The notes below the pieces were generated by a model, which saw nothing but the letters and a program-made list of their open reading frames with translations, was not told the DNA's origin and searched no databases. A stretch of 63,081 nt of DNA, counting the filler, from Hausera hauseri (taxonomy: Eukaryota): the NCBI GenBank assembly GCA_046269625.1. It is 10 parts of 10 records of this genome, joined end to end, with 100 filler letters (N's around TTAATTAATTAA, not from the genome) between each part and the next. Parts side by side here need not be neighbours in the genome. Positions count along the whole stretch, not along the records: positions 24,875 to 34,998 come from JBJURY010234406.1; 9 more parts are not named here. The stretch is one strand, 5' to 3'. The position numbers and the translations under genes are program-made. This document shows positions 10,416-52,262 of this stretch, one piece after another. Positions within the stretch are counted from its first letter, which is position 1; the number at the start of each line of letters is the position of its first letter.

Positions 10416-10487
10416 GTAAATAATAATATACATTTCCGCAGACGTTTTTGTTTATATTCACGCCGCACACATAAATACTGCTACAGT

Positions 10488-10966
10488 ATGAACACTGTTT
10501 TCATAATGTTAGCCAATATTAACTATCGTGGAAATGTTTTAGATTGTATTGACGCATTACCGTTTAATCAATGGAAGCTGAGGCAGTATGTCCATAAATG
10601 TCCACCAGATTTTACATGCATCATATTTCAATCGGTCAAGTGTCGTATTATGGGTTGTCGCAAAATAGTCACAAATAATAACAGTAAACTACCATTCGAA
10701 ATTGTCATTGACCAAATTCAATCAATAATGGTAACGACTCAGTTAGATTTCCATCAGTCAATCAATCTGTACAAATTAGCAATGGCTACCGAATGTATTT
10801 ATGAGCCAGAACTATTTCCCACACTGATATTAACATTGCTTCGTCCACTTTGTGTTAACGTGTTTAGTAGTTGAAAAACTGTCGTACTCGGTATTCCGAC
10901 AATGGACTATGAAGCGACTGTTAATCAAATTAAAAACCATATAAATATTTTAGTGAATCAAAATAA
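10488..10966 (+). pseudogene. TATA-binding-protein (TBP)-like gene inside the Polinton
   Basis: Two TBP-like half repeats: CIIFQSVKCRIMG and INLYKLA...YEPELFPTLIL...VNVFSS*KTVVLG (TGA at 10872 replaces the conserved Gly). Confidence 0.8.
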
Positions 10967-13499: not shown

Positions 13500-14950
13500 C
13501 AGATTATTGAACTCACAGAAACAAATATCCACCGACTGACAACAATATAAAACAAGCAATTTTATCGCTGATACTGATATTTCACTGTCCTCCTGAAAAC
13601 TGAGATTAAACAGAATTTCGATTAGAGCCGGTGTGAAAATCATCCGCTCTTGAATCCTCGTGTTTGTTTTAATGAAATCGACAATTTCTATCAGTAGAAT
13701 CTTGGTTAAAACGCGATTCTGAACTGATAAAATTGATTCAAGAATATCCGATGACTGTTGAATAAAATTTGTTGGTAATTATCTAAATAAAAACTTGGTT
13801 ATATTGTCATAAACGAGAGACATTTCAATATCATTGTCGGCAAAATCCAGAATTGAAATCATTTTAACAATATCAATAGGACTAATATTATCCTTTAAAA
13901 GTTGAATAGGTGTATTGGATAAAAAATATATAAAGAGCTCGATATTCATCAGGATTAAATTTTCGGATTACTGCTTAGTGTAACAAATCATTTTCAATCC
14001 TCATTTTCCTATAAATATTTCGGTAGAACGTTTCAAAATTCTCATCAATATCCATCTTGCAATCGGCATTGGACACAACATCAGCCAACAATTCCATTGT
14101 CTGCAATTGCGATACTTTATTACCATCGACAAATACATTCTTCAATATGTCGAGAAACATTGGATAATTTTGAGAAACCAGTTTAGGACTTCTTCTATAG
14201 ACTTCAAAGTAAATCGATGAGTAACTTGACAACAAAATTGATCGAAATGGATTTTCGTTGATATCTTTCAGGCCGACATAAACGTTATCCAACAAATGAC
14301 TATTCTCAAGCTGTTCAAAACCGGCATTAGATTTAATCAGTCGTTTAATTATTTTCAAAATGTTCATTGTTACTAGAACGTCATGGCTGCTAACCATTTC
14401 GTTCATTTTGAAAACGATTGTTGTTGGAAACAAATAAGAAGCCGAATTCGAATTTGAGCAAAACAATTTTCGCATAATCAAAATGTAAGGTAGTGTAATG
14501 AAAAACATTGGCAGGATAAAACGTTGTGGCAATTACCACAAGTAGAGTTCCAAAATGCTTTTTCTGTAGATTAGGATAACGCCCAAGATTGAGGAATTGG
14601 TTTACCGGGTAGAAATCAATAAGGCATGTCTGAATTATGTTCCTGAGAACAACGTATTGTGTAATCCGACAGATTTTGCATGAGCAGTTTTGTCGTATGG
14701 TATACATCCAGTAATATTCTGCTACCGTATTGAGAGAATAGTCAATTCCACTAGAAAGCGTTGTAATTGAAACATTTTTGATCGTGCATCTGAGGATCAG
14801 TACTACCGTTTTGTTGTGTAAGTTGAGTCTGTAGTCTGTGTAATCGGTAGTTATTACTCGTTTCTCATTGTGCGTAACCGCGTCCAATCGAATAAGTAAC
14901 TCGGATATTTGATAAACTGAAAAACAATTCACTGATAATTTTCTCGTCTA
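13500..14950 (-). pseudogene. Large intronless orphan gene, frameshifted and 5'-truncated near the Gypsy insertion
   Basis: ORFs 14390-14932 and 13975-14532 overlap, and protein-like sequence continues past the stop at 13975. Confidence 0.4.
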
Positions 14951-14952
14951 AG

Positions 14953-17245
14953 TCGACGGATTAAATTCTTAAAGCAGGGAGTTGGACGCAACTATTGATC
15001 CGACAAGGCGATAAGGAACGCCCGACCGTGCCCGACCAAAATGGGCCAAAGGGCACCGGCCGCAGTGGACACCACATCATTCCCTCGTGGCAAGGTTAAA
15101 ACTATAAAGAGTAAAAGAGACAGAAAGAAAAAACGCTAAACGAAGAGTGTCTGTGTCAGTTGATCTTAGTGTGAACAAGCCGTTGGGTGCCTTCTACTGA
15201 TTTTTCCCTGCTATACATGCAAAATAGGACTCTGCGTGGTTTGTCTGTATGCGGTGTATTTGCTTGTAGAGTTTGAAGTTGGGGAAAAAGATTGTCGGAT
15301 TTTGGTGTAAGTATTGTGTCGTGCAAAGAGGAGTTTGAATGAAGGAAAAAAGAAGGTGAAGGAGGAAGAGAAATTGTTGGCTGCGAATGATTAAAGGTAT
15401 TCAAGAGTGTTAGAAAACAATGGACTGACAAAATGTGTAGTGGCAGATGTAGGAGGAGAGACGAACATTGGGAAGGAAATTGGAATTGTGTTAGGCGAGA
15501 GAGTAGAAGTAGAAGACGAAACGAGGTAGTGGTAGAGATAGGATGATAGATGGGAATAGAAGTAGAAGGTGTGGAAAATGATGAAGCGGAACTAGGAGCA
15601 GAAGGAGGAGATGAAACTGGTGTAGCAACAAATATAGGAACAGTAGAAAGTGTAGGTGTGTAAAAAGAGGTTGACGTGTCGATTGGTGAAGTGTCGTCGA
15701 CAAAGAAGGCGGGCTTTAAGTTGGTAATATGCACTGCAAGTTCGTTGCCGTCTTTAGAAATAATTGCGTTGTGTGAATGCAGCTGTACCAGTTTATAGAG
15801 CCCCAGATACCGCGGTTGGAAACCGCACGGCGTTTGATTTTTTAGCCATACGAATTTTGCCGAATACAAGTCTTTGGGTAAATATGTTTTGTCTTTGTAA
15901 AGTAACCTGCAGAACGAATCTTTGCTGACCGTAAAAAAGTGATTTTGCGCCACCCGTATCGTTTCATCTGTAGGAGCGTCGTCTAGGGCAGTTAGTACGA
16001 ATAAGGATCATACAGGAGCTCCGAATAAGGCTTCAGTAGGTGAGCATCCCGTAGAAGTAAACGTCTAGTGTTGGACTCTGCCAGAATTCTTAGTGACGTT
16101 TTCAATATTCGGTGGAAACGTTCTAAAAGGCCATTCGACTGCGGTGATAAGGTGTAGTATGTATGTGATGGATCCCCAATCAGTTTTCAAGGGATTTGAA
16201 CAGGTTGGATTCAAACTGTGGACCCTGGTCCGTGGTGAGGAAACGAGGTGATCCACACCTGCTAGTCCATGTACGAATGAAAACGTCAGCTATAGTATCA
16301 GTGTTTGTGCTCCGCAGAGTGATGGCTTCTGGCCATCGAGAGGAACGGTCCATCATGGCGAGACTGAATTGATGACCGTTGTCTGGAGGAAGAGAGTTAG
16401 CGACGTCGATATGCGCGGATTCGAAACGCGATGTGCAGGAAAAGTGGAATAGTAGTGGCTTCAAATGCTTAGTTGTTTTGTATTTTTGGCAAACCACACA
16501 CTCCTTAACCCATGCGTGCACATCAGAACGCATTGACTTCCAAACTACTTGTCGATGGAGTAAACGAAAAGTGGCTTTAGCACCGGGGTGGTGCAGCGAA
16601 TGTACTCTGTTAAACGCTTGCTTTTGCTGAAGTCGTGCAAAAACTATTACGTAATGACCTGGTTTGGAAGTGTCTAAAGCCGCGCCGTCAACAATTGTGC
16701 AAGACTTGAAAGAACTAAGCATGTCCTGAGATGGCTGAATCTGTTGAAGTTGGGATTGAGTAAAAATCGTCGAAAAATGAATCGAACTAACCGACCTAGA
16801 TAAAATGTCGGCAACTAATTTATTAACTCCGTTAATGTGTTTTGTGTCGAAGTTAAATGTCGACAAGTATGATATCTGTCGTTCTTGGCATGTGGAAGGA
16901 TATTTCATAGCTATGATGTTAAGTAAGGGTTTGTGATCGGTCTGTATGGTAAAATGGCGAGCGACAAGTAGGTGGGAGAAATGCTTTAAAGTGAGAACAA
17001 TGGTCAATAATTCTCGATCGAATGTTGAATATCTAGTTTCATGGATGTTAGCTTGCAAGAGAAAAATTTTTGATTTTCTCCTTTGTGGATATGGTGAAGC
17101 ACAGCACCTATTGAAGTGGTTGAAGCCTCTATATTAAGGATAAGTTCCGCATCAGGCTTGTGGAAAGCGAGAATGTCGACGGTCTTAATTCCTTCGCGTA
17201 GCTTATCAAACTTATCAAGCAACTCAGGTGTCCACTGGATTGTGT
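14953..17245 (-). mobile_element. Gypsy (CsRn1/Kabuki-like) copy: RNase H, integrase, Ser/Pro-rich tail, probable PPT and partial 3' LTR
   Basis: YSTFDRELL, TDHKPL, HSLHHPG...CVVCQ, DRSSRWPEA, TDQGPQFES; purine tract at about 15201-15210. Confidence 0.9.
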
Positions 17246-17268: not shown

Positions 17269-20200
17269 GTGAATCGAATGATAAATGATAAATTCCGCCG
17301 TTATTTCTTGTCACCGCTGCCCACCTCAAACAAAGCCTTACTAACCGTTGTCGACGAGTCCACTGCTATCGAAATACTGGCAATAATGGCTGACAAATAC
17401 TTTGAGATTCTGCATATTAACAGTTCTCTCCCTATTGCGGCTTCAACCACATGTGCTCCAACTACAGACACAACATTTTTACTCAACAATTGCAAATGAT
17501 GCAGTAACAGTTTGAGAAGTTACAGCAGTCGATTTTGGCCATTACTATCTTCTAAATAATCTTCATGGGCCTCGACGAAGTGAAACCAGACCTTTAAGGG
17601 AGAGAAGCATTTCCAGACACACTGCTCGATCCATTTCACCTGGCGGATGCATTACTTGCTTCTATCACACACGATTTCGAAGGGATGCTAGGAAATGCTT
17701 TTTGAGTTGTCCGTTCTACAGCGAACGGTACGCTGTAGACAACCCTATTTGTGTCTACCACAATAAGTTCCAGTCACAGGCTAGATCATGCGTGCCTGAT
17801 TAGAAGCATTACAATGATAAATCTCTTCGCTTTTCTTCCTCTTCTTCCTTTTCTCCAAAACCTTCAAAAAAACTAATAGTGCCGCCAGATTTTTCGGCAC
17901 ATTCTGGCGCAGGCAATATCGCTCAATCTTCTGGCCGTTTCAACACCGCCTCTGCAGTCTTTCTGTTGAAAGCTGTACTGTTATGCAGATATATTTCACA
18001 TATCGACTTCCTTATAGACGCAGGAGCTGCCTTTTTGCTCCTTCCCTTGTCCTTTGTTCCTACATCGATTATGATTTCCTGTCCACCGTTTTTCAATGCC
18101 AGCGGTCAACCGTTGCACTTTACAGGAATCACGGAATTGACTTTCACATTCGCCAACTTGCCAGATAAATTTATATGGAAGTTTCACGTGGCCAACATTA
18201 AATCTCCCATAATAGGCTCAGATTTTCTTGCCGCATATGATCTATTGGTCGATTGAAAATACAGCTGTCTTTTAAGCAGGAACTCGATTGCAACTCCAGA
18301 CATGTGTCTCGTAGACAACTTAGCGAGCAATTCATTGCACTCATCTGTGAACATGTTGAACGCTTCTCCATCTATAAAAAACTTCCGATAAAGTCGGTAA
18401 TATTTCAGTTATGAACGACAATCATAAATCTATTCTCAAACAAAAATCCAAATTAGGCGTCGACAGTAGCGATGCAAGTTGCTTTTCGTCAATCACTGGA
18501 GCTGTTTTTTCTAATGATATACCTCATTCATTCTTGTCTCTAGACTCCAATCTTAAATCATACGTCACAACGCATTGCTTTCGCATAGTTAAAAAGGACG
18601 TCAACTTCAAGCCTCCATCCACAACTTATGATCACATATTAACAGAGCATCAGAAGCCGATCAAACAAAAGGTCAGACTTTTGTCGCCACGCAGACGTAA
18701 AGCTGTGGAACAGGAATTTAATGAACTGGAAAGGTCTGGCATCATTCGGAGATCGAATTCACTGTGGGCTTCTCCTCTTCATGTAGTGGTAAAGAAAGAT
18801 GGTACCTATATGCCATGTGACGACTATCGACAATTAAACAATCTAACTATTACAGATGCCTATTCACTGCCACTCATTAAAGATATTCTTCATAGCCTCA
18901 ACAACACCAATACCTATTCTACCATTGATCTGCACAAGGCCTACAATTAAATTCTTGTTGCCCCTGATGACATTCCAAAAACTGCTGCCATTACACCAGT
19001 TGGACTTTACGAGTATATTTTTATGCCTTTCGGTCTACGTAGTGCATCTCAGACTTTTCAGCGCTACATTGACACCGTTCTTTCTGGTCTTGACTTTGCA
19101 CACCCATACATAGATGACATATTAGTCTCTTCCAGCTCCAGCAAACAACATTATGAGCACCTTAGAATTATTTTCCAAAGAATGCATCAAAGCAACCTGC
19201 AAATTAATTTCGCCAAATGCAATTTCTTCCAGAAATGCGTCAACTTCCTAGGTCACATAATTACTCCCAAAGGTCATTCGCCTCAGCCTGATCGCTTACC
19301 ACAATTGAAAAATGTGACATTACCAATTACCACTACCGACATGAAGAATTTTTTAGAGACACTGCACTTCGTACATAAGTACGTGCCACACTGCTCCGAA
19401 CTAATCGCACCTTTTGCACACCTCTCATCTAAGAAGAAAAGACAACTAATCTATTGAACTCCCGATCTAGTTAATCAATTTGACAGCCTTTATGATGGTT
19501 TGAAATCCGTTTAAATCTTGGCTTTTCCAAAACCGAACGCAAAACCAATATTAACTACCGATGCCTCAACCACAGCCACTGGTGCGATATTACACCAAAT
19601 ATACAACTGTGTTGACGAGTCATTGGAATTTTATTCCCGAAAGCTCACACAACCGGAAAGCCAATACCCAACATTCGATCGTGAACTCCTGGCCATAGTT
19701 TTAGCGGTAAAGCATTTTAAGTATTTGCTCCTATCCCGTCAGTTCGTCATCCAAACTGATTATAAACCTCGATATCTTATCATGACGTTAAAACAGCCAT
19801 CACCCAGGCACGAACGTCAGATATCATATCTGTCGACATTTAGTTTTTCCATGAAATATATTTCTGGCACCGAAAACTTAGTAGCAGATATTCTGTCGCC
19901 GTAAACTCAATTACAGTTCAACCAATTTTTGCCTCTGAAGTCCTAAAAAGTAATCAGTCATCATCTGATATTCTCCAAGTCTTTAAATCGGTTGAGGTCA
20001 TCGATGGCATCGCCTACGACACATCCAACTCGACTAATAAAAAATCATTCTTGCTACATCACTACAAAAGACAACTTTCACGCATTTTCACTCTCTTCAT
20101 CATCCGGGTTCAAAAACCACATTTCGTCTACTGCAACGCCACGTTGTATGGCCAACTATGCGTACAGATGTACAGGTCTGGATCAAGGAATGTGCAGCAT

Positions 20201-20381: not shown

Positions 20382-21426
20382 GAAAAACTGCCTCAAAAGT
20401 TTTTAATAGATCCCTCTGGAAAGGGGAGAATCGAAGAATTTATAAGAAGGAGGCAACGTAAGTCTGTGCATTAAAAAAGTTGGCAGCCAGAGCATACCCT
20501 GACGTTACTACAAGGAATAACGCATTGTTAGCTCACTTCCAGTATGGATTGGAAGAGAAGTTGAGGACAATAATCTCTCAGGCAGATTCTCCTACGTTTC
20601 AAGAGGCCGTAAGGAAGGCGCGAAAAGCCGAACGAGACGCGGAGCTATATAGGTGGAATAAGTCTAAAAGTAGCAGTAGTAACTGCGATAAAAGAAGAAA
20701 CAATAGTACACAAAAGTACCAAAGTTACGACAGAAATAGAAGCCCTTTACAAACGTCAGCCACAGAAGCTGAATCAAACGTAGAAAAAAAGTAAGATTTA
20801 AGTTACGAAACGATGGAGAAAAGTTAAGTTATAAAAAGAAATCCAAAAAGGATGGAAGAGCGTTACCCAACATATAGTCTGAAGGAAGATTGAAATGTTT
20901 CAACTGTAATAAATACGGATACATAGCAAAATCATGCAGATCTCGTAGAGAAGACTCTTCGAAATCCAAGAGTAAACAAAAGAAGAAGGATTACACATCA
21001 GCCATGTCAGATGAATCATACGACAAGGAATATGAAACGGAGGTTAGTGCTAGCGAACATGAAGTTAAGAAAAAGGACAAGAAGAAAGAAAGTATCAATT
21101 ATATAAACGATGTACTATCCCACTGCATGAAGAAACAATTAGAAATCGAACTGAAAGATTTTCAAACACGACAAAGAATACTGAAAGAAAACAGCATTTA
21201 TATGATAGGGGATCAACCAGAGAAAAAGGTATCCCACCAAGGAAGAAAGAAAGGTAATAAGAAAATAATCGACACGGACGTTGGATTAAGAGAAACATCA
21301 ACAGAGCGGGAAGAGGTAGGAAAGAAAAAGAAGAGAGGGCGAAAGAAAAGTAACCTCAATACACCCTCATTAGATCAAGACGATGCTCAAACCACACAAA
21401 TATTTGACAAAGAAATATTAGAATAG
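20382..21426 (+). pseudogene. Gag (capsid C-terminal part and zinc knuckle)
   Basis: HFQYGLEEKLR...TFQEAVRKARKAE; CFNCNKYGYIAKSC (CCHC with H>Y). Confidence 0.85.
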
Positions 21427-21429
21427 GTA

Positions 21430-22618
21430 ATAAAGGATACAGGTATTATAGATCTGGATGAGGAAGACGATATCATTCAAGCAATAAAGACTATCGATCC
21501 CGATAACATAATCGATGTAGATAAAAAAAACCACCACGATACTAAAGATAATCACTAATAAAGAAACAGTAGAAAGGATGGATGAAATTTTGTCTTAATT
21601 AGTGTTATTGGCCCAAGATACCAGCCCGGTGAGGGAAATACCACGAACAATACTGGCCAAGGCCGCTGAAGATGAGAAAGGAGGAAATGAAACCATAAGA
21701 ATAACAGTAAGAGAAGGAAATCGAAATATGAGAGTTATTCGAATGAACGAAATACACGACGTACCAGCTTTATGAGAGAAGATAGAAGAGTTGGAACCAT
21801 TCTATCAAGGAAATCCTTATGAACTGAATTATTACGGAAGAACGTTATATAGTTATGATAAATTATTGAGAATTGGATGTAAAAGTAAGAACTATAATTC
21901 AATAATAATAACCGAAATACATGCAGAGGCGAGAGCTCAAGTAACGATTGATAATATCCTAAGGGAAATGAAACCGCAGGAAGTAGAAGGACCTCTCGTA
22001 GGTGATACGCAAGATGTTACGGTCCAAACAGAGGCTAAGAGACGAGGTAGACCAAAAGGAACAAAGATAAGTGATATTCGTAATAGGAAAGACAGAAATA
22101 AGGAAATGGTGAGACGTCTGTTGTTAGCAGGAACAAACGTTATGCCCGAATCGGTGGACATAGACCCGTTATTAAGAACTCTACTGGCTAAGTTACACAC
22201 ATCATTCGCTTCCTTTGATATGGAAGTAATAAATCCAGATGAACTATTCCAAACATTACATAACAGTATGTTGCGAATAAGTAGGCAATTCTATGACAAT
22301 CTCGACGAAGAACGGATAAACGAATTACACGAATTAGATGTTTTGGAAACGATGTACGCAACAGGGATCACACGGGCGAAAGCACAAACTGCTATATCTT
22401 ACCTATTATATAAAATAATAGTAATCAACCATCAAACTCAAAACTTAGAAGAAATTGAACGAAATATAAAGACAGGCTTCAAAATTCTGAAGGATACGTT
22501 AGGCAACTGGGTCCAATGTAGAGGTGGATGGTTGACTAGCTTAATGACTGACATAACAAGGTTAGAAAAACGTGGAAGACTAGTAGATACGCAAAATGAC
22601 TCAATCAAATACTCCTAG
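21430..22618 (+). pseudogene. Unknown helical domain X with AT-hook-like motif, apparently continuing the gag reading frame
   Basis: ORF 21791-22618 plus upstream decayed frame; KRRGRPKG; conserved in copy B. Confidence 0.7.
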
Positions 22619-24349
22619 ACAATGTGTCGCCGGTATGTCAATCATGGAAATCTTTCAGGTACTTTTAATATCGTCATTATTGATGCCAAGAGCTGTAGGT
22701 ATAGTGGCTTTCGATTGCTCAAAGCCTAGTGAAGGACAGAAGTACTCTTTAGCTGACTTAGAGAAGTGTCCAGAAGCCGACCCAGAACAACTATCAACGA
22801 CAAGTGGACTTACATATTGGATTTATCAAGAGTCTGAATTTATAAAAGTGAAAGTTACGGAATGTTACTTAAAGAAATCATTCTTTCTTTTCAACTGTGC
22901 ATATTCCGGAAATTCTGCCATTATCGAGCCCACAACACATTTTGAACCGATGATAATATCACGAGCAGAATGTCAGGATGCTTTTAAGATCGGCATAATA
23001 ACCATTCATTATGCACACATACCTGCAGTTCGGAACAGAATACAATACACCAGAATTTTTAGAGAAGGAAGAATTGATAAGACGATGGAAGGTACTTTTA
23101 TTGGAGAATATTATGATGCGGGAGGTACTATCGCATCAAGAACGATGGCAATTGAAGACTACCAGGTTCAATTGAAAGAATACGAAGTACTATTTGACTC
23201 ACAAACGAAATTACTGACAACTATGAGTGAATGCGAATACGATAATGGCGAATGCGACACCGGAGAGTCAAAAATGACATGGGAAACATCAGCAAATAAG
23301 TGTCAGTTAACGCTGTTGAAAGAAGGAAGACTTAACAAGACAGTAGGAAAAACGGCTGAGAAAATGGCGATGTATAAAGAATGAACGAAGGAAGTTAAGA
23401 TGACGGAAGTAGCTACAACGTGTATTCGGAACACCCATAGTAAATGATGCGATTTAAAGTCAATGGAGTGATAAATAAATGTAATGAAGAAATATCTAGA
23501 ACTAATTATAAAGGGATTTTTTTGTCATCAAAAGAAATACCTGGTGCTAAGACAAAGATAGATAAAAAGGACATAAAATTAACACAATATTTTAATAATG
23601 AGATTGATTTCTTAATCAACCATGTAAGGAAAGAGATTAGAGGTTTATAGAGAAATAATAATGAACGAGTGTAAATTAAACTATGAAATAATACAATACA
23701 AAATGGCCTTGGTAATTACGAATCTAGATATGGTAGCTCCGGTGATGTCCTTTGGCGATGGAGTAATCGGAGGAGTAATGGGCGAGGTATTAATAACCAT
23801 AGAGTGTAAAAAGATAGAGGTGTCAATTAGACCAACTGAAGAATGTACGGCAAAACTACCCGTAGTTTATCACTGAGAACCAAGGTATGTGATGCATGTG
23901 ACAAGAATATTGTTAGAATCTAACGGTAAGCCGACCTTATTGGAGAACTGCACGTTTAACATGTCACTTATGTTTAAACTGGATCACAAAACATGGATTA
24001 GAATGCCAAAAAGAGAACCGGTATCTAAACCAGCTACATTAAGCGTGATCAACCTGCAAAGAAAGAAGAGATTTGAACCGTTAACAGGAATATCGCAAGG
24101 GGGAATTTATACGCAACAGAATCTAGAAGATTATCGACCAATGTTGCTGTTTCCCCTACAGAGACAGAGTTATAACAGAACTAATCAGGAGAGTAATGTG
24201 GGATGGTGAAGGATCACCATAATGGAAACTGTAATGGGCAAAAATTATTTAAATAAAGTAACAAGGAATATTATGGAGAAAACGTGGGGAAGTTCTTATA
24301 TTTCGGCCAAGCAGCTTCTGGTTTCCTAGCGATATATTTCATTATTAGC
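22596..24349 (+). pseudogene. Chuvirus/herpes gB-like class III fusion glycoprotein (env)
   Basis: Signal peptide then AFDC...YSL...C, IYQ...V.ECY...NC, ISRAECQ, CEYDNGEC, GEVLITIECKKIEV...EECT.KLPV, VTRIL, GIYT, TM FGQAASGFLAIYFII. Confidence 0.85.
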
Positions 24350-24874: not shown

Positions 24875-24997
24875 CCCTATTAATCGTGCGTGCGTGTATC
24901 ATTTTTTCTACCCCATGACTCATCCGTGAACCAGGAAAAATTTTCTTCCCCCGAGGGTGGGGGGGTGTCTGATCCAGTGCGCTCACATCTACCTACT
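24875..24997 (-). repeat. Polinton-type terminus (reverse: AGTAGGTAGATGTGAGCGCACTG)
   Basis: Matches the termini at 34589, 37198 and 47914; interrupts the exonuclease-like ORF. Confidence 0.65.
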
Positions 24998-25420
24998 CGC
25001 GCATTTTATAAAACTTGCTAGCCAGCTCCTTATATGTCGTCCTTTCCAGTTTGTACTTTTGAATCACCTCTTCGTGATACACCAAATCACGAACTCCGAT
25101 GATTTGTCGTAACGGACATAAGATGTGTTTTTGCAACATCTCAAGAACTCCGGCTCCGACTACCAACTTATCCGTTAATATGCCAGAAATCTTCTGATAG
25201 AAAACGTTTAAATCCATTTGATTATTGATATTTGACTCCGTTATTCCGGTTATATGTGAATCAAAGTTATTTATTCTTTGTCTTGGCGTTATCATGGTGT
25301 ATAATAACGTGTTACCCTGTAAATCAATGACTGAACATTCCTATGGTGTAAGTTGATTATTCTGGTCGTAGGCCAAGTTCACGGCTGCGACTATGATAAC
25401 TCCATTGCGGACTTGCGATA
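24998..25420 (-). pseudogene. DEDD (REX4/ISG20-like) exonuclease-like domain
   Basis: ECSVIDLQGNTLLYTMITPRQRINNFDSHITGITESNI...KISGILTDKLVVGAG; ExoI acidic residues not evident. Confidence 0.7.
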
Positions 25421-25737
25421 ATCGTTTGTTAGGTTTACCAACTTAGTTTAGGTAATCCGGTTCGATCATGTCAAAGCATGTTCCGCGGGGGGGGGGTGAT
25501 CCACGTGGGTTCTGATTTTATTAATTCGATTCCTATCATTATTCTGTTAGTCATCGTATGAATTTTGAGGGTATTTCTTTTGATCAAGTTGAATTGGATT
25601 GTTATCCCATGATTCGGGTCCAAGTTGAACAAATCTCCTGTTTGATTTGTATTATTGTCTTTAGTTTTAATCTGGAATTTTCCTATGATGTCGTAGATAT
25701 TAAGACTGTGGAATTTTTCTGAGAGATTAATTAGGTC

Positions 25738-27570
25738 TTAAAGAAGAAATAATGTAGCCTTGATTATTTGGACTAGAGCCAATGATCGATTACTTTGGGA
25801 ATATCCCTTAAAATTGTTGCGTATCTGCTGTACCAAAGGAAAGTTATGACTATAGGTGTTGTCGTTTATCACCATGTGATACTGATTTGAAGGATTGGCT
25901 TTGATTAAATAATTTTTGGCATTTTCATACCAATTTTTAATGCGCTGTACTTTGTGCATGTCCACCATCTTGACTGGTACTGTAAAAAAACTGATAAATA
26001 ATGTAACGGTTATCATAATAATTTCGATAATCGTTATTATTTTAGATTTATCATTATTTTTCATGGTAACTGAATAATATTCAGTCATCTTAATTCTTCG
26101 GATTGCATCAACTACAATCCGCTGAAGTTGTTGGCAGCTTGGATTGTCTGTATCCAGGATATTTGGTATACGTCGCATATTTATCCTAACCCAATTTGGT
26201 CTGCGACGTTTTCGTATAAAAGCGATTATCTTTAATGCGAATGCTAACATAATTAATAATATTATGGGACATACAGTACTTATTATTATTAGAATGAATA
26301 TAACTTGCTTTTGGTAGCAGTACACTTTTACTTGAGTTTGTGCTCATTTTCTTATTTTTTACTTTTTGCTGTATTTTGGCTTTTGTCGACGCTGCCAGTA
26401 ATTTCATGGAAATTATCGTATTATCATCCTCGTATAGTTACAGTGTAACCGTATATTTCTTATTGGGATTTAGGTCGGCACACGGTACTATTGTGTCATC
26501 TGGCGTGATTGTGCCTTTTGCTATTATTTTTGACCTAGCTTACAGATGAATTTAATTTTATAGAAATTTAAATCAGGTTGGATAGCTAAGACTAAGGAAG
26601 TGAGCGTGGGAGATATTGTAACATTTTCTAAGACAGAATGTTTTTGACTATAGTGTAAAGCGTGAGGTCGAATAAAAACAGTCATTTCTCCGATGTTTAT
26701 CTTTGTTTTATTAGACAGTAAGGAGTTTGCGAAAGGTGTCGTGACACTTGGATGCTGATCGTAGTGATATTCAATGACATTTTTGAGTGGAACATGTGTT
26801 CTGGGCCCTTGGTGAGTTAAAGTCTTGATGATCTCTGGATCCTTTCATACTAACATAAATTCTAAATCATAGGTTCTTCTTCGTAGGGCATTACAGCAAA
26901 CTTGGAGGTACCTATCGTTTAATTAACATTTTGTCGGTATCCTCTGCTTCTTCTGCACGTCCGTAAGTTTTATACTTATTGCTCTGTTCTATTCAAGCTC
27001 TATCATTGTTCTAATCTCGATGCAATTTCGTCCACTTTTAAAACCTGTCGGCTCTACAGTAAATAGAGTTATTATTATCTCGTCTAATTTGGTTGCATTC
27101 ATTATTCGTCTATTAGGAACCTGTATGATACCTTGGCACTTGGTGTATTGCCACTGATAGCGATTCTTATGTCTTTTGATTAGAGTATAGTATATGAGAT
27201 ATTGGCCAGAGTCATCTACTATACACTCCATTGTGTTCTTCAAATAAGTAAGACCGCAATCATATATTCGTTGTTTCGGACTCCGCTCGTAATCATGCTC
27301 GTGGATTGTTTGAATTCGTATCATATACTGGTTGGGTAACCTGTCAAATATCATGAATCTTATACATTTTTGACCTTTTCTTGTATAAGTTATCTCATGA
27401 TAAATACTTTCCATCAGACTGCTTTCTAACGTTTCGTTTGAAGGGATTGTTTTCATCCATGGATCAAGCGGTTTTGTCGTTTGAGCTAGTAGGCCCGGTA
27501 TCCCTATAAGAACCAGTAGGCAGAGGTATCTGAATACTTCACAATTTGGAGTTTTATTACTTCTCTTTTT
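25738..27570 (-). pseudogene. Post-integrase membrane protein: signal peptide, beta-rich ectodomain with FN3-like repeat, TM helix
   Basis: FRYLCLLVLIGIPGLLA|QTT; LENVTISPTLTSLVL...YKI...DLNPNKKYTVTL; VIFILIIISTVCPIILLIMLAFALKIIAFI-RKRRR. Confidence 0.65.
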
Positions 27571-27573
27571 CTA

Positions 27574-28720
27574 GTCGATGGCTCGTACAAGTTCTTGTTC
27601 ATAGTTTCTTAATTCTTTCTCCTTAGATGCAAGTTTACACCTGTTGACATGTACTTTAATTATAGTGTTATTCTTCTTTAAATATATATTAGGTAGATCC
27701 ACTTTTTCTACTTCATACGGTCCCTTGTATGGTCTATCTAACTTGAATGTTTTACCTTTCTTACAACATCATCTTATCTCCTACTTTAACCGTTGGTTGC
27801 TTGGTATTTTTATCATAATACTTTTGTATTTCAATTTATAATCCTTTTGATTGTTCTTTATTACTTTATACGCTAATTGAAAACATTCCTGCATTAATTG
27901 TTTATATTCTTGTACCGCCATTAACTGAGATATAAGACGCACATTGAAATCCAAATCAATTGGTAATCTAGCATCTCTTAAATACATCATATAAAAAGGT
28001 GTTTCTTTGGTATGTTCATGTACAGACGTTCGATTCACAAAAACACACGCATTAATACACTCATCCCAGTCATCTTGTCTTACATTAACTACCGTTTGTA
28101 GCTTTTCTTTCAGATCTCCTATGTACCTTTCAACCATTCCGTTGTTCTTTGGGTGTCCCGGAGTTGATCGCAATTTCAATATCTTCATAATATCGTATAT
28201 TGCCTGTATTACCTTACCAGTTAAGTCAGATGCTTGGTCTGTTAACACAATTCGAGGAGCTCCATAATTAAATATGATGTTTTCTACAAATTTTTCGGCT
28301 ATCGTTTCAGCTTTCATATCTGGCATGGGTAGTGCAATGACTCATCGGGTGAAATAATCTATAAATACTAAGATATATTTGTTCCCGTTTCTTGTCAATG
28401 GTAAGGGTCCTGTTATATCCATTGCTGTGAATTCAAACGGGGTAGGTGGATTGCCCCATACTTTCAGGTGACCTTTAAATTTGCATCCCGTATTCTTTCT
28501 TGTGGCACAGAGTTTGCAGCTATCACACCAATCTTGGACATCCTTGGCTATGGTTGACCAGAAGTATTTCCTTTTTAGTTTGTTTATCATTTTTCTTACT
28601 CATTGATGTCCACCTAGTAATCCGCCATGATATTGGGTCAATAATACTGCCATATTCCTTTTTGAAATTACTAGTGGGGTCCATTTTCATGATAATATAG
28701 AAATCCATCTTTTTCTTCCT
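27574..28720 (-). pseudogene. Gypsy integrase
   Basis: YFWSTIAKDV...CKLC, MDITGPLP, DYFTR, LTDQAS, NGMVER, KLDRPYKGPY, VHVNRCK. Confidence 0.93.
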
Positions 28721-30200
28721 ACGCATCCCTAAATCGGGTTAAATGACGAGCCAGTTTTCTATCCTTTGGTACAATTTTATTTTGTATATAATTTCTAATG
28801 GCTTTTATTTCTTCATCTTTTCGTTGATTCTCTTTTATCCACTCTACGGATCCATCCATGCTCCATACCGCTGAAATTACTTCTTTCTTTTCTACCTCTT
28901 TCTGTGGCATTCTCGATAAATAATCCACGTTTGCATTTCGTGTGCCTGACTTATACTGAAAATCTAGCGTATAAGGTTGGAGTTTTAAAGCCCATCGTAG
29001 TAATCTACTATTTGGGTTCTCCTGCTTTTTTAGCCATTGCAGTGGTTTATGGTCTGTGTAGATTGTCAATGGTTTATTCTCACTAATATACGGTAAGAAT
29101 ACTTATAAGGCGAATATCACCGCTAATAATTCCTTTTCAACAACGGCATATTTCTTTTGGTGTTTATTTAATTTTCTTGACGTATAAGCAACTGGATGTT
29201 TCTTGTCATCTTCGCCCTTTTGTGATAATACCGCTCCTACTCCATAATCGCTTGCGTCCGTTGCCAGTACGAATGGTTTAGTCATATCTGGATAAGTCAG
29301 GATAGGGGCGTTCAATAATCATTCCTTCAGGTTCTAGAAGGCCTTTTTACACTCACTTGTCCATATTTTCTTTTCTAAATTTTCACGTAATAATTTATAT
29401 AGTGGTTTGGCTATTTTACTAAAATTCTTTACGAATATTCGATAATAATTTGCCAATCCTAAAAATTGGCCTAATTCATTGACAGTAGTGGGTTTTGGGA
29501 AATCTTTAATTTTATTTAATAATCTATCTTGAGGTTTTACACCATACCTATCAACTCGATGTCCGAGAAAATCAACTTCGGTTTGAGCAAATGAACATTT
29601 CTTCGGGTTTATTTTTAAACCCATTACTTCACATTTATCAAAGAGATCTTGTAAGTTCTTCAAATGCTGTTGGAAATTCGAAGATGCTATGATTACTTCA
29701 TCGATATATACCATAGCATGTGGTGCATCTAGAAGTAATAATTCTGTTCCTCTTTGAAAAGTCGGGGGTCCATTTTTTAATCAAAATGGCATTCCATTGA
29801 ATTTCCACAACCCTTCTCCTATTGAGAAGGCCGTTTTCGGCTTATCCTCCGCCTTTACTTCTACTTGCCAATATCCTTTCTGTAGATCAATTGTAGTGAA
29901 TATGGTTGAGCCGTGCAACTTGCGAGTATTTCGTCAATCCTTGGTAGTGGGTACGTGTCTGTTTCCGTTATTTTGTTTAACGCTCTATAATCTACACAGA
30001 ATCTCAGCTCCAACTTTCTTTTTTACCATCACTACTGGAGCCGTCCATGCGAAACAGCTGGGTCGTATTATTTTGTTTTCCCTCATTTCATTCATAAATT
30101 TACTAGCTTCTTCCTTTTTATTATATGCCAGTCTGTATGGTCGTTTTTTTATAGGTTTGTTTTGACCCTCCTTCAACTTGATCGCATGTTATATTACATT
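28719..30200 (-). pseudogene. Gypsy reverse transcriptase and RNase H
   Basis: [54 protein letters not shown]. Confidence 0.95.
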
Positions 30201-30250
30201 CATCGTTCCTAAATTATAATCATTTTTAGCCAATCGATTATTATTTTTCT

Positions 30251-31198
30251 CTAATTATTCTTTACATAAGATATATTACAATTCTGTAATTTTTCTTTCC
30301 AGTTGAAGTTGGTAGCTTCCTGCTCTTTATTTATATTTACATTTCCTTTCAATTTCTTCTTTATTAATTTGTCGATCTCATCTACTTCTGAGATTACTGA
30401 ATTAATTGCTTCTTTCAATACTTCTTTAACATCTGTTGCTTTCCCAAGTCTCATATTCCTTTTCAACCATTTCTCCTTTGCTGCCGTATTACAAATTCTC
30501 AGATGAATTCTTCCCTTCCTTATCCTGTCTATATGTGGTGCAACAATAATATTATGCTTCTCCATTATTTGTGGAAACGGTTCAAAGTGCACGCAGCTTG
30601 TCAATAATCCATACTCTATTTTACCGGGCATTACTATCTCTGATTGTTGTGGAATTATGACGTCTTTAATTAGTGAAATTGATCCTTCATATTGATATTC
30701 AAACCTTCTTAGTTATCCAGTTTTGACATCTATATACACATTATCCAACTGATATAATACATCACATTCGATTAGTATTTCGTTTGTTAAGTTTTTGGCC
30801 ACACTTATGATATGGCTTATTATTTGGCCACAGATTTTAATTTTTGCATCTAAAACTGTCTTTATCTCTTCCTCCATACCAAATGCTCCCACATTAATCA
30901 ATGTTTTTTCTGGTTTTCGTAATCTACTCACCAACGCCTTGGGTAATTGACTTTCCCCCATTATAGTGGTAGTGGATCCCGTATTTATTGGGGCCGTTAG
31001 CGTGTGTCCGTCTATCTCGATATCTATTTCTGGTTTCAACACCGACTGGGCCTCGTTCTTCTTCTCACTCGTTTTGCACGTAGGCTCACGATCATATGAT
31101 GCGTGTTTTTCTTCGTAATCCTGTTTTAGGCGCAATACTTGATATGTGGGATACATTCCTCCATGTTTTACATATTGAGGGGCTGAAGGACTTAACAT
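30251..31198 (-). pseudogene. Aspartic protease plus PR-RT spacer, preceded in frame by a PSAP-containing segment
   Basis: IEIDGHTLTAPINTGSTTTIM (DTG>NTG) and EILIECDVL (ILGxD motif). Confidence 0.8.
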
Positions 31199-31439
31199 TC
31201 GCTCGTTATATATTTGTCCGTGATATTTACCTGCCTGGTCTAACTGAGGTAAATCAGTAACCAGTTTCCGTTTATACTTCTGTCTTCGTAATTTTAACGA
31301 AAATCTTCTAAGTTTTGTTAAGTATCTGTCACTTCTCTGTTTGATATTTAATCATATTCTTCATCATCATTTTGGTATTTAGAGTACTATATGGCAAATT
31401 TTTCTCAATATCTTTAGTCCTTCCTTTTCATTTTGCATC

Positions 31440-32888
31440 ATGATTTGCTAAAAAACAAGTAAAAACCGCTGGTATTACCGCTATTAAGATTTCCTATGAG
31501 CATCATACTGTTGCATGTATTCCATAAGCCTTAGTGAGTGTAATGAATATTGTTCGTAGAGTACTAATGGTAAAATATATTGCTAAAATCCCTGAGGCAG
31601 CTTGACCAAAATATAAAAATTCGGTGTCTAGTAATATTCTAGTTACTGGTATTACGTACCAAGGATCCATATTATAAACTACTGGTAATTTTGCAGTACA
31701 TTCCTCCGTTGGCCTAATGGCTACTTCTATCTTTCTACACTCAATAGTTATAAACACTTCACCCATCACTCTTCCGATCACCCCATCGCACAATGGCATA
31801 ACTGGAGCTACTATGTCGTTGTTGGTTATTACTAACGCCATCTTATTCCGTATTATTTCATAATTTAATTTACATTCGTTCAGTAAAATTTCCCTATATA
31901 AACTTCTGATCTCTTTACTGACATAATTGATTAGAAAGTCGATTTTATCCTTCTTACCTATTTTTGTTTTAGCTTGAGCTACCTCTTTAGTCGAGAGGTA
32001 TATGCTTTTATAGTTAATTTTAAACATTTCTTCATCACAATTATTAATCGTTCCCACGATTTTAAATCGCATCATCCCTTCGGAGGTTTCTGAATATGCT
32101 ACCGTTGCTACTTCCGTCATCTACACTTCTCTGATTCCTTCTTTATATGTTGTCGATTCTCTTTCGGCTGTTTTTCCTACCGTCTTATTAAATTTCCCTT
32201 CCTTTAATAACGTAAGATGGCACCGATTCGCACCAACTTCCCAAGTCATTTTAGATTCTCCAATATAACATTCTCCGTTATCGTATTCGCATTCATTTAT
32301 AGTTGTCATGAGCCTGGTTTGCGAGTCAAATAGTCCTTCATCTTTTAATTGAACTTGATAATCTTCGATGGCAACTGTTCTTGGCGCGATAGTACCTCCC
32401 ACGTCGTAATCCACTCCTTTCAAAATACCTTCCTTCGTCTTATCTATTCTTCATGCTCGAAAGATTCGAGTATATTTTATTTTACTTCGTACTGTCAGTC
32501 TTTGTGCATTTGGTATCGTTATTAGTCCGATTTTAAAAGTGTCTTGGCATTCGGCTCGTAATATTATTATTGGTTCGAAAGGTGTTGTTGGTTCGATAAT
32601 AGCAGAATTCCCGGAGTAATATGCGCAATTAAATAGAAAGAAGGATTTCTTTTCGTAACATTCTCGAATTTTAACTTTTATAAATTCCGATTCCTGGTAA
32701 ACCCAATACCTATAGCCACTAGTTGTTAGTAATTGTTCTGGGTGCGCTTCGGTACACTTTTCTAGATTAACCAATGAGTACTTCTGTCCTTCTTTAGGCT
32801 TTGAACAATCATATGCCACCACGCCCATGGCCTTAGGCATCTATATGGATTCTATCAGTAGTAACTGTAATATTTTCATGAATGTCAT
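31440..32888 (-). pseudogene. Class III fusion glycoprotein, copy B (internal deletion of about 370 bp)
   Basis: VVAYDCSKP...; GRVMGEVFITIECRKIEV...EECTAKLPV; TM FGQAASGILAIYFTI and EILIAVIPAVFTCFL. Confidence 0.85.
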
Positions 32889-32899
32889 CCCGTCTAAGC

Positions 32900-33870
32900 C
32901 TTGTTTTGTATAATACTTGGTTATTTCGTGGCTGCTGTTTCATGTGATCCTCCTTCAGGTCTTATTCTACTATTCATTAGACTTGGTATCCATCCACCTC
33001 TACATTGCACTCAGTTTTCCAAAGTATCGCGTAAAATTTTAACTGTTAATTTTATATTTCTTTTGATTTCCTCCAGATTTTGTGTCTATTAATTAATAAC
33101 AATTACTTTATATAATAAATAAGCAACAATTGTTACTTCTTTTTCTCTAGTGATACCTGCCACAAACATCTTTTCCAATATATCTTGTTCCTGTAATTCG
33201 TTAATTCTATGTTCACTGATATTCTCGTAAAATTTTCTGCTAATCCTCAGCATATTGTTATGCAACGTTTGGAACAGTTCATCGGGAATAGACACTTGCA
33301 TATCGAACGATGCAAATGATGTGTGTAATTTTGCTAACAGCGTTCTCAACAATGGGTCTAAATCTATAGCCTCTGGAATCGTATCAGTTCCTGCCAATAA
33401 CAGTCGTCGCACAGTCTCTTCATTCCTATCTCTTTTGTTTCGAATATGGTTTATTTGAGTTCCTTTTAGTCGTATTCTTATTTTAGTCTCAGTTTGTACC
33501 GTAATATCCTGTGTGTCGCTGATTGGTGGCTCCTCTACTTCCGGTGGTTGTAATTCCCTTATTATATTTTCTATCGTTTCCTCGGCTCTTGCGTCGGGGT
33601 GTATTTCGGTTATCGTGATTGGGTTATAATTTTCACTTCTACATCCAATTCGAAAGGAGTTTATCGTAACCATACAATGTTCTTCTATAGAAATTTAATC
33701 CATATACTTTTTCCTTATAAAATGGTTCTAATTCTTCGATTCTTTCTCGCAATGTTAATATATCATCAGTCTTATTCATCCTGATAACTCTTATATCCTG
33801 ATTCCCTTCTTTCAGTGTTATTCTTACAGCTTCATTTCTTCCTTTTTCATCTTCAGCTACTTTAGGCAAG
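32900..33870 (-). pseudogene. Domain X, copy B
   Basis: DPLLRTLLAKLHTSFASFDM is identical to copy A. Confidence 0.75.
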
Positions 33871-34588
33871 AATAATAATGCATACCTTTTAGCTTCAAAT
33901 TCTGAATATTTGGAATATGTAATGTAACATCAATGTTATTTAAAGTTAAAGTATCATCAGTACCTGAGATATCAAAACAAAATATTAAATATAAATTTTT
34001 ATAATTTTTAAAATTTAATGGAGCTTCTACTTTATATTTTTTACATAAATTAACATAAGATTGATTACGTAATATTACATCATTTTTACTTTTATCAAAT
34101 GCATTTCTATTAATTGAATAATAATTATCATTTAATAGAATTTGTAAAGAATATATTTGTTTATTATCTTTATTTTCTTGTATAAATAAAGAAGAATTTT
34201 TATTCAATTTAATTTCGCTACCTTTAAATCCTATAATTACACATATTAGTAAATAAGCTTAATTTGGTAATTTTGTTGAAACATTTAAACCTTGTTTATT
34301 ATGTAAATTAGTACAAATTATTCTTAAATAATCTACGAATATTAGTTTATTAATATTCAATCAATTTATTAATTTTACTTCTGCTTGCCGATTTAATGTT
34401 AATTTTGGTATATGGAATTCTAATTTCTTTAAAGTCAAAGATCCTTTAGTATCTTTATCCCCCAAAAATATTAATTCATTTGCAATTTGTCTATTTAAAG
34501 TTGGTAATATGTGAATACATAATACTCTATTATAATTTTGTAAAAATCCATATAAATATGGTGAAATATTCCTGTAAACTTTAATTTG
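33870..34588 (-). pseudogene. Polinton major capsid protein (double jelly-roll) fragment
   Basis: LYGFLQNYNRVL...LNR, LKKLEFHIPKL, NYKNLYLIFCFDIS; extremely AT-rich. Confidence 0.65.
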
Positions 34589-34760
34589 AGTAGCAAGATG
34601 TGAGGACACTGAGCGTATATAAATTTCCTAACTCGAGGACCCCTCTAGGATCGCTAATCAATATTTTACTTAGGAAAATCAGGCTCAGCCGTGGTTTTAC
34701 TATTCCCATCCCCAGAAAATCAATTGGCCCAGACGGGGTTTCACTATTCCCACCCCCAAT
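34589..34760 (+). repeat. Polinton-type terminus (AGTAGCAAGATGTGAGGACACTG)
   Basis: Interrupts the capsid frame; homologous to 24350-24500. Confidence 0.65.
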
Positions 34761-34998
34761 TTGTTTAAATTTTATTAAGTTGATATAAATACGCCTGTGT
34801 AAGTGTCACTTGCGAAAAAAGTCAACATTTAAATGTACACTATGACAAAACATAAGACAAAGAATTCTGTACAAAATATTTATTAATATAACATATACAA
34901 ACAATCAAATATTTATGCATTCAATACAATAATGTCCATATGCGACACTTTTGTTTTTATCAACCCAGTGTCGTTTGTCGTCGAAGGGATCTAGAGCT

Positions 34999-37197: not shown

Positions 37198-40100
37198 AGT
37201 AGGTAGAAGTGCGGGCTCCACCCAACTTTCCCAAAAGTGCTCAGATCGACCTCGGACCTAGTTTTCCCACCTATGTCACAATTCTGAGCATTTCATGTCT
37301 CGAGGTCAGAGACCCCTTCAGGGAAAGAAGGTCGAGCAATGGACTTTGAACCGAGACCAATCGGTCGAGCCGGATAAGACGAACAAAAGTTATCGGCGCC
37401 GCGGAGCCGGAAAATGTAACCCGGCGGCACAGGAGGTGGAAGAAGAAAAACGGGCAATGTGCAACTGTCAATGCAACACATTTTTATTTGTTTTTAGTTT
37501 AACAATTACTTTAATTTGTTTATCACTCCGAAATGTTCGCAATATCCAATGTATTGCATCTCCCACATACATGATGGTGGATAATGTCACAATGAAATGG
37601 CCAAATATTATTCAGTGGCCGAGGACACGTACCTGTGTCTCGTGTGTTTTATTCAAGACACATTCCCGTACGCCGACTTTTGAGATACACAAGCATCATC
37701 TCGGTCCGTTCACGCGGTCCAAGATGGCTGTGCATTGCCCCACATCCGCGATACTGTAGTAGTAGTAGAGTGCATGACGTTGATGGTTGCCATAGTTTAA
37801 TGGAGCAGTACTATGGCGCCACAACGGTGCACGGTAAACGGGCCTACGTTTGTTCCGGTTGTTCTATAGTTGATGAAATCAACTATGAACAATTTTATAA
37901 CCAGCACAAGGACCACTTAAACCAGTTTCAGAGGTCCAAAACGGATATAGTGATGTCGACAAGAAAAACCAGTATCCCTTCAACAAGTAGAGAACGTCAG
38001 GCCTCAACAAGTCTTGACGAGTGCATCCGAAATAGTACCGAACAGTAGCAGCAGCAGGAGGAACCTTCCATAACTATCAAGTACGATCTAAACAAATCGT
38101 ACGTGGACCTGAAAGTAAACATGTCTTGGACAACAACACTACAGCTGGGGCCTGTTCCGTCAAGTGTGCGCAGCCGGTTGGAATTAGAGGTGGAGAAATT
38201 CAAACTCAACAACTGCAAAGTGGAATATTATTCACTTGCAGAATTTGAAAACGTTGAAGGTGACAGGAATCAAAGGTATATGTCACATCGAGCCGTACCG
38301 TATTAGGAAGATTTTATTGCCGATGTAGGCGAAAAATTGGATGATAAAATCGACAACTACACGGAAAAGGGTAGTGGATGGCGAATTATACGAATTGTCA
38401 CACTCGGCTTTATCATAACAAAGTCGAGTGACGTGGTATACTTGTCTGGACGATCATTCATACCGACACCTGCATCTCTAAAGCAGTCTCTGGTGGTAGT
38501 GAGTGTACAAAATACTGACGACGACGACGAATACTGTTTTCTGTACAGTATACTGGCTGTATTGAAGTACAGCGAAGTGAACAGATATCATGTAATCGTC
38601 GAAATCAGTATCGGCAGTATTTTTCCGAATTGTAATTTGATGAATGCTGCATGCCGATGAAACTGAAAACTATTCCGGCTTTTGAACGGCATAATCCGAC
38701 GCTGTCAATCAACGTTTTCCGGTACAACACAATAGTTGAGATACTGGAAGATGAAGATATTTATAAGAACCGCCATGTGGACATAATTTATCGCAGTTGG
38801 AACCCCATTGGACGCTCGGTAAATTTGTTGCTGTTGGAGCAGGCCGAAAAATTTTATTACGTGACAGTGACAAACCTGGATAGACTGTTGAACATGCAGC
38901 ATGACCAGTTCATCAAAAAGCGAATACGATTCAAGTGGTGTCTTGTATGTCTGCATGGATTCAGATCGGAAACAACGTGGGAAAAACATGTTACGCTATG
39001 CAGACAAAACGGATCAGGGACAACAATGTACGTCATGCCCGTCATAAGGGAACTCAGATTCATTGATTGCTTTTAAACGGACAGTCCGGCATATGTGGTG
39101 TATGCCGATATCAAAGCAATTCTACCACGGCACAATGTATACGACCAAAAGCACGTTCCAATTGCCGTCGGTATGTTGCTAGTACCAATAAAAGCCCCGG
39201 ACAACCGCAGTATTACATTTTTTGTGGTTGGAACTGTGTGCGTAATTTCCTGCTGCAGTCGGAAACCATAGTGGAAACGGAAATTGCGCCGTGTTATTGC
39301 AACAATTGCAATAAGCCATTCATTTTGGCAGACAAATATCAACCGTTGCTTTTCGCAGTCACCGATGAATGCTATATGTGCCACAAAATAATATCGTTTG
39401 ATGCACAAGAACGGCTCCTACCGGATCCCGACCATTTGACCGGTTAATATTTGGGAGCAGCATGTAATTATGCAATTTAGCAAGGCGAGTGCGACCATTC
39501 CTGCCGGTGATCTTTCATAATTTCCGAGGTTATGACTGTCACCATATTCTCAAATGGGCCATTAGCGTCTTTCCGCACTGTGAACTGTCCATAATCCAAA
39601 CGACAATGGAGAAATACCTATCACTGTTGGCACGAGTAAACCGATTCCAGGTACGCTTCCATGATTCATTGCAATCTCTCAATGAATCATTGGCAAAGCT
39701 GGTAAATGCCTTGCCAGATGTGCGAATAGCACTGATACATATTTCCATATGACTTTGCAACATAATATAAGCGACTCCGGACAACAGAGGAATTACTGCC
39801 GACAGGTATCACACAGGATGAATGCCGGAAAGCAGAGGTGTTGGACAAAACTCGGATGTAGAAACATGTTGGATTACATGTTCGTGTATCTTAAACTAGA
39901 CGTGTACTTATTCGCCGATGTGTTCGAAGCATTTCGGGCCGAAGCGCTGGCGGAAGATAGGTTTTATCCACTCAACTTTTATTCCATACCCGGAATAAGT
40001 TTGGCGTCAGCCCTAATGTGACTGGATAGAGACATTCAGCTGCTGCAAGACCAGGAAATTTACCTAATGTTTGATGTTGGTATTCGCGGCGGTCAGTGCT

Positions 40101-41659: not shown

Positions 41660-41759
41660 NNNNNNNNNNNNNNNNNNNNNNNNNNNNNNNNNNNNNNNNN
41701 NNNTTAATTAATTAANNNNNNNNNNNNNNNNNNNNNNNNNNNNNNNNNNNNNNNNNNNN
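41660..41759. other. Artificial contig spacer
   Basis: N44-TTAATTAATTAA-N44. Confidence 0.98.
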
Positions 41760-52255: not shown

Positions 52256-52262
52256 TAGCAAC

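Follow-up and report, generated by a model that had tools for sequence, protein, structure and literature searches.

A decayed membrane-protein gene behind the integrase of a dead, Burro-like Ty3/gypsy copy in Hausera hauseri

Introduction

What does a Ty3/gypsy element of Hausera hauseri (assembly GCA_046269625.1) encode behind its integrase (IN), and by which route would such a product be made? Infectivity and binding targets of env-carrying gypsy elements outside Drosophila are an open question. The window, i.e. the whole stretch of DNA analysed (63,081 nucleotides, filler included), consists of ten contigs joined by N linkers, and the contig at positions 24875-34998 carries the retroelement on its minus strand. 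A reading of the sequence alone had proposed that the IN frame leads, behind a single TAG, into a second membrane protein with a signal peptide, an FN3-like segment and a transmembrane (TM) helix, giving a fusogen plus a receptor binder expressed by polyprotein fusion or stop readthrough.

Burro is a single ORF of 4873-5140 aa in which gag, env and pol follow one another in the same frame, in the order Gag, ubiquitin-like, Bcl-2, Env, PR, dUTPase-like and RT, and Burro/GYPSM1 are giant elements of over 30 kb (PMC6431247). BURRO1 is transcribed upon smedwi-2 knockdown (PMC8532177). GAG-ENV-POL elements with a gB-type Env are known in Nematoda, Bryozoa and Platyhelminthes, for example Smed_errantivirus_1-6 (PMC13524379).

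Results

Domain searches of the contig reveal, from 5' to 3', a Polinton capsid remnant, a ubiquitin-like (UBL)/Bcl-2-like region, a class III Env, protease (PR), reverse transcriptase (RT), RNase H (RH) and IN (Table 1). The Pol order PR-RT-RH-IN is that of Ty3/gypsy (Metaviridae), and the class III Env sits 5' of PR as in the GAG-ENV-POL errantiviruses of gB type (PF24664, E 6.8e-33). We are thus dealing with a Ty3/gypsy copy that is dead and truncated and whose layout corresponds to that published for Burro/GAG-ENV-POL elements; from this layout a flatworm host is likely. The UBL and Bcl-2-like domains follow the Burro order between Gag and Env, every match to them lying below the curated cut-off (E 0.031-0.084). 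Between PR and RT there is a 150-residue insert, but it gave no dUTPase match in Pfam or PDB. No long direct repeat, and therefore no LTR pair, was found in the contig, which holds a copy cut at both ends. The tail of IN is presumably of the GPY/F type. In what we take to be the catalytic-Asp motif of PR (~30985-31000, minus strand) an Asn stands where the catalytic Asp is expected.

Table 1. Parts of the retroelement copy and of the gene behind its integrase, in window positions
Feature	Position	Strand	Evidence
UBL + Bcl-2-like polyprotein region, Gag missing	32960..33929	-	36% identity to P0006 residues 518-758; Bcl-2 PF00452 E 0.039 here, below cut-off
Class III (chuvirus/gB-type) Env, signal-peptide-like start, C-terminal TM, 5 stops	31446..32912	-	PF24664, profile 4-421 of 653
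Aspartic protease domain	30749..31027	-	PF09668 E 3.8e-5; RVP E 0.001
Reverse transcriptase + RNase H, broken	28722..30188	-	RVT_1 E 1.8e-12; RT_RNaseH E 2.8e-40; 4 stops/393 codons
Integrase: H2C2 finger, core, GPY-type tail (presumed), 4 stops	27574..28686	-	Integrase_H2C2 E 1e-15; rve E 4.9e-12
Hydrophilic linker, ~35 codons, from integrase to next gene, holding the TAG	27571..27573 (TAG)	-	Frame reading
Signal-peptide-like stretch	27484..27543	-	Kyte-Doolittle 2.69 over 12 residues, preceded by basic residues
Orphan ectodomain, 8 Cys + N-glycosylation sequons, 3 stops	26640..27483	-	No homologue in the libraries searched
Membrane-proximal FN3-like segment, split by frameshift near 26530, stop 26438-26440	26380..26640	-	Weak profile match
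30-residue TM helix (26304-26215), then RKRRR (26214-26200), beyond second frameshift near 26340-26300	26200..26304	-	Hydropathy 3.15 over 19 residues
Tail: second hydrophobic stretch 26040-25984, third, weaker, 25785-25729, stop 25738-25740	25474..26199	-	Hydropathy; codon usage still favours frame
DEDDh-exonuclease-like remnant, end of coding run	24996..25442	-	Weak PDB matches

Gag is missing in the studied copy and is found both in a sister copy, where 20382-20644 matches the Gag of the relative P0006, and in P0006 itself (zf-CCHC). The sister copy (20382-24300, plus strand) comprises Gag, a CCHC finger, the UBL/Bcl-2 region and Env, and is 71% identical to the studied copy over 2273 bases. 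The Env of the studied copy is shorter near the C-terminus than that of the sister copy (22587-24300), which retains ~120 codons there that the studied copy lacks. Where Gag would be expected, a remnant of a Polinton/Maverick double-jelly-roll capsid gene (33860-34627, minus strand; PF21738, E 0.025) adjoins the retroelement, in a junction that looks like a deletion or a nested insertion.

Other features lie elsewhere in the window. Three related Polinton-like relics on separate contigs (37500-47283) are 68-81% identical and include a fragment of a protein-primed polymerase B (40188-40961; PF03175, E 1.6e-4). An open frame of 945 codons at 643-3480 (plus strand) encodes TAF2 in highly diverged form (E 2e-17 against the human protein). 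Like the fragments of TBP (10350-10874, plus strand) and PSMD5 (13975-14532, minus strand), it may be a host gene, a retrocopy or a sequence from some other organism sampled along with the host. Gypsy elements of other families have left pieces of RT, RNase H and integrase at 15156-17133 (minus strand) and 18378-19457 (plus strand), which show no nucleotide match to the studied element. Tandem repeats with units of 8 and 12 bases, strongly skewed, occupy ~48300-52500 and yield long spurious open frames.

We then consider the stretch behind IN. The words GPYEV, VHVNRCK and RAID, the TAG at 27571-27573, KKRSNK and FRYLCLLVLIGIPGLLA-QTT share one minus-strand frame, as the sequence-only reading had it, and this frame is open for 65 codons ahead of the TAG and for 193 codons beyond. 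The notion of a single TAG as the one break does not hold: the IN frame has four further stops, among them 27781-27783 and 27769-27771 just ahead of GPYEV, and the downstream gene has five stops as well as two frameshifts, near 26530 and near 26340-26300.

Several lines of evidence show that this stretch is coding. Its off-frames contain 133 stops in 1454 codons (~9 per 100), whereas the coding path has 5 in 727. The first 348 codons have 3 stops, whereas each of 5000 shuffles has at least 10, and the open run of 193 codons recurs in 0 of 5000 shuffles of these codons. This is further supported by codon usage trained on env and pol, which traces coding sequence uninterruptedly from IN to ~25000 and changes frame at both frameshifts and near 25500; another frame is favoured in 2 of the 24 windows, by less than 2 bits. 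Stop density, shuffles and codon usage together rule out a chance ORF.

Decay of the gene has kept pace with that of pol and env. Its 5 stops in 727 codons (3/348, 1/89 and 1/290 along the three segments) lie at 26989-26991, 26923-26925, 26845-26847, 26438-26440 and 25738-25740. The other frames carry 17 stops in 1809 codons when the UBL/Bcl-2 region (3/257), env (5/485), the PR region (1/303), RT-RH (4/393) and IN (4/371) are combined. Together with the TAG at 27571-27573 these 22 make 23 stops in the frames examined. Given these stops and the two frameshifts of the downstream gene, the TAG is far from being the sole interruption.

To place the gene in its family, related contigs from three runs (X1, which may be where the window itself comes from, X2 and X3) were aligned to the stretch at 80% likeness. 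In X1 the summed depth, which is not a copy number, reaches 1388-6112 in bins 25894-27583, compared with ~30 for contigs identical to the studied copy; pieces from X2 and X3 over 27167-27540 differ from it at ~16% of letters. Among the 40 of 2777 differences listed, most of the aligned depth departs from the studied copy at the internal stop 26989-26991, and at the first frameshift one related contig has a different length. Over 25218-25893 cover falls to 231-354, which may mean that the tail varies, or has diverged further, among copies. The element is multi-copy and, because many diverged contigs carry the downstream gene, the gene belongs to the element family. Copies in which a PPT/LTR follows IN immediately would have spoken against the earlier proposal; related contigs in all three runs cover the gene instead, and this cover, together with the coding signal, rules out a PPT/LTR right after IN. 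Thus, the second gene proposed behind IN is supported by its coding signal, its decay in step with pol and env and its cover by related contigs in three runs: the stretch is a real, decayed membrane-protein gene.

Its parts are collected in Table 1. The signal-peptide call rests on hydropathy and pattern, and an ATG scan of the sequence leading from the TAG to this stretch found none in frame. The ectodomain as a whole comprises ~390 residues. The long TM helix, the RKRRR following it and the further hydrophobic segment lie where they had been described. The DEDDh-like remnant that closes the coding run has three matches in PDB at E <= 1, to PolC exonuclease (E 0.0059), ISG20L2 (0.076) and ISG20 (0.078), and none in Pfam; its first acidic motif is unrecognisable and a single-sequence AlphaFold2 model reaches a pLDDT of 32. 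The remnant stops where a very high-depth repeat starts.

Homologues of the downstream gene were found neither in a 5.8-billion word search nor among 1.84 billion representatives searched with phmmer (0 at E <= 0.001), nor in viral or metagenome contigs, PDB sequences or Pfam, and the TM/tail piece gave no usable Atlas match. Pfam rows below the cut-off (DUF4364, HAT_PRP39_C, ZSWIM3_N and others) were taken as chance. Likewise, viral, metagenome and genome contigs yielded no whole related element when queried with integrase, Env or an alignment of Env. These blanks do not indicate novelty, because the libraries are poor in animal transposon ORFs (one relative of the sister-copy region was present). 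As the libraries searched hold no homologue, no host FN3 donor can be named.

The proposal of an FN3-like segment at ~26630-26385 fared less well: the words on which it was based are present there, while sequence searches of Pfam and PDB show no FN3 in any piece of the downstream gene, Pfam having been searched piece by piece on either side of the frameshift. Two custom profiles were built, one from 30 and one from 48 bacterial FN3 domains, and the gene was read with X at the breaks. The best scores, 3.1 bits with the first profile and 0.9 bits with the second, come from the motif L-x-P-x-x-x-Y alone, and a match above the cut-off across the whole FN3 domain was not reached. Shuffles score as high as the segment in 14 of 2000 cases with the first profile and 57 of 2000 with the second, and six-frame chunks of the window in 0 of 582 and 10 of 582, respectively; with the first profile the two top-scoring chunks are those containing the segment. 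HHalign gives an FN3 probability of 1.4%, equalled by 3 of 300 shuffles. A single-sequence AlphaFold2 model of the ectodomain, which leaves out the C-terminal half of the segment, has a pLDDT of 31. The likeness of the membrane-proximal segment to FN3 (p ~0.01, one motif, a segment picked by eye) is a hint at such a domain.

How the gene would be expressed depends on the meaning of the TAG. The relative that bears on this is P0006, which is 42% identical to the sister copy and was the sole relative among 3114 candidates when the middle region of that copy served as query. It has an open frame of 1130 residues without a stop, comprising Gag, CCHC, UBL, Bcl-2-like, a signal-peptide-like stretch and Env, and its Pfam matches to Bcl-2 (PF00452, E 0.055) and ubiquitin (PF00240, E 0.031) are below the cut-off. 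Ahead of Env, a hydrophilic linker of 33 residues leads into an internal signal-peptide-like stretch without a Met. P0006 ends within Env, short of the IN junction, and the IN junction of the studied copy is built like this pre-Env junction, with a linker of ~35 codons, a hydrophobic stretch and no in-frame ATG after the TAG. Because the intact relative has the same layout before Env as is seen at the IN junction, polyprotein fusion is the likelier route, and we consider it quite probable. Of the two routes proposed earlier it is also the one that fits the family, given the single Gag-to-Env frame of P0006 with its internal signal peptide and the single Burro ORF of ~5000 aa (PMC6431247).

From stop density and family layout, the TAG is likely a decay stop. 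At ~0.9 stops per 100 codons, the 35-codon linker would acquire one or more decay stops with a probability of ~0.27, an estimate from the rate of the studied copy itself. Counting against fusion, the TAG sits ~20 residues past the HVNR motif, at what we take to be the usual end of gypsy pol and of a GPY/F integrase. It might thus be the natural end of pol. The membrane protein would then have an ORF3 of its own, like errantivirus env, and be translated from a spliced or subgenomic RNA or begin at a start codon that the studied copy has lost. In Drosophila gypsy, env is spliced and has no ATG of its own. Moreover, env is its own ORF in other gypsy-like elements, and accessory ORFs of Burro may be separate or fused (PMC6431247). 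A separate ORF3 requires, however, a chance frame match to IN (1 in 3) and a start that is lost or given by splicing, there being no in-frame ATG, and P0006 fuses the equivalent junction ahead of Env; we judge this route unlikely.

Programmed readthrough of a conserved TAG, which would keep the second glycoprotein low relative to Pol, would explain why the frame continues past the TAG and does so without a Met. Against it, the TAG is one of the 23 stops of a dead copy, and the 100 nt that follow show no stable hairpin, their folding energy of -13.8 kcal/mol being that of shuffles (-13.8 +/- 3.0; z ~0). We also know of no readthrough context that matches the bases 3' of the TAG. Readthrough, the second route of the earlier proposal, is therefore very improbable.

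Discussion

Taken together, our analysis favours, with somewhat better than even confidence, a dead, truncated Burro-like GAG-ENV-POL Ty3/gypsy copy in which the membrane-protein gene is likely the C-terminal part of a giant polyprotein and the TAG likely a decay stop. The kind of element is already known, while the post-integrase membrane protein appears undescribed in the literature searched: no published description of a second membrane protein behind IN in such elements was found there, and annotation in Repbase is possible.

Among the closest known systems are Burro/GYPSM1 of planarians, with which the element shares a Gag with CCHC, candidate ubiquitin/SUMO-like and Bcl-2-like domains, a mononegavirus-type Env between Bcl-2 and PR, PR-RT-RH-IN and a high copy number, as well as the single-ORF build, shown here for P0006 from Gag to Env (PMC6431247). 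In contrast, the MATH, BIR, ankyrin, Smc and midasin-like parts named for Burro/GYPSM1 are not seen in this 10-kb contig, and the part of that text available mentions neither fibronectin nor a membrane protein behind IN (PMC6431247). The HSV/gB-type errantiviruses likewise combine a Ty3/gypsy pol with a class III Env ahead of it, but three ORFs only are annotated for them, other arrangements were not searched there, and the words 'exonuclease' and 'accessory' are absent from the available text (PMC13524379). 'Fibronectin' is absent from the available parts of PMC13524379, PMC5408684 and PMC6431247.

Two further systems carry membrane proteins behind pol. Atlas virus (Belpaoviridae) has its envelope in frame behind integrase in one polyprotein of 2828 residues, with two glycoproteins of which the phlebovirus GN binds and GC fuses; unlike the element studied here it combines a BEL/Pao pol with a class II fusogen, and both glycoproteins derive from one captured phlebovirus-like precursor behind IN (PMC9094657). 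Here, the two surface proteins would flank Pol and be unrelated. The bdelloid LTR elements Vesta and Juno also encode additional TM proteins, as well as 3'-5' exonucleases, behind pol, but as separate short ORF3s (TM-only or DEDDy), usually of one type per family, and with no upstream class III Env in the part of the text available (PMC5408684). The exonuclease-like remnant of the present element leans, by its weak matches, to DEDDh, in contrast to the DEDDy ORF3 of Vesta/Juno (PMC5408684). Troyka was considered and rejected; it is described, in the part available, as having no envelope and no GPY/F motif (PMC12440569).

If fusion is the route, a single chain would comprise Gag, UBL, Bcl-2-like, Env, PR-RT-RH-IN and the second membrane protein. 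An internal signal peptide without Met would route each surface protein to the ER, host signal peptidase would free it, and the TM of Env would bring PR-IN back to the cytosol. Held in the membrane by its TM helix and the adjoining RKRRR, the second ectodomain would belong to a type I glycoprotein produced one-to-one with the fusogen, and, more speculatively, the second and third hydrophobic stretches could return the chain to the cytosol for its nuclease-like end.

The second protein would most likely serve in attachment or adhesion, alongside the class III fusogen, a guess from its topology and the weak FN3 likeness. Of the two-glycoprotein entry system suggested by the sequence-only reading, the class III fusogen upstream of pol and the second membrane-protein gene are supported, the FN3 fold and receptor binding being conjectural. 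In its full form, the idea is that a Burro-like Ty3/gypsy element produces two unrelated surface glycoproteins in one polyprotein that crosses the ER membrane several times, the class III fusogen lying ahead of Pol and an attachment protein of FN3 type behind IN, so that a metavirus would split binding and fusion as herpesviruses or paramyxoviruses do; we regard it as rather doubtful.

Alternatively, the downstream gene might encode host-modulating cargo, such as a decoy receptor or an adhesion or signalling surface protein, instead of a particle entry protein, which we take seriously as a possibility that falls short of an even chance. Some class III fusogens, rhabdovirus G among them, manage both binding and fusion by themselves, and the tail of the second protein continues into more hydrophobic stretches and the nuclease-like remnant. 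Moreover, Burro bears many apoptosis and ubiquitin domains, including Bcl-2, ubiquitin, BIR and ankyrin (PMC6431247), and an ORF with a TM is not thereby env (PMC5408684). Counting against cargo of this kind are the signal-peptide/TM build, which is the same as that of Env, and the finding of no likeness to host proteins in Pfam, PDB or the 1.84 billion representatives, in searches whose sensitivity is lowered by decay.

Because the studied copy is dead, it is a poor object for study and only points to the feature. If the second surface protein is conserved and made together with the fusogen, it would be a testable attachment factor. If the polyprotein is built as proposed, it would represent a new topology among retroelements, with the enzymes held between two membrane anchors, and surveys restricted to gag, pol and env would overlook part of such elements.
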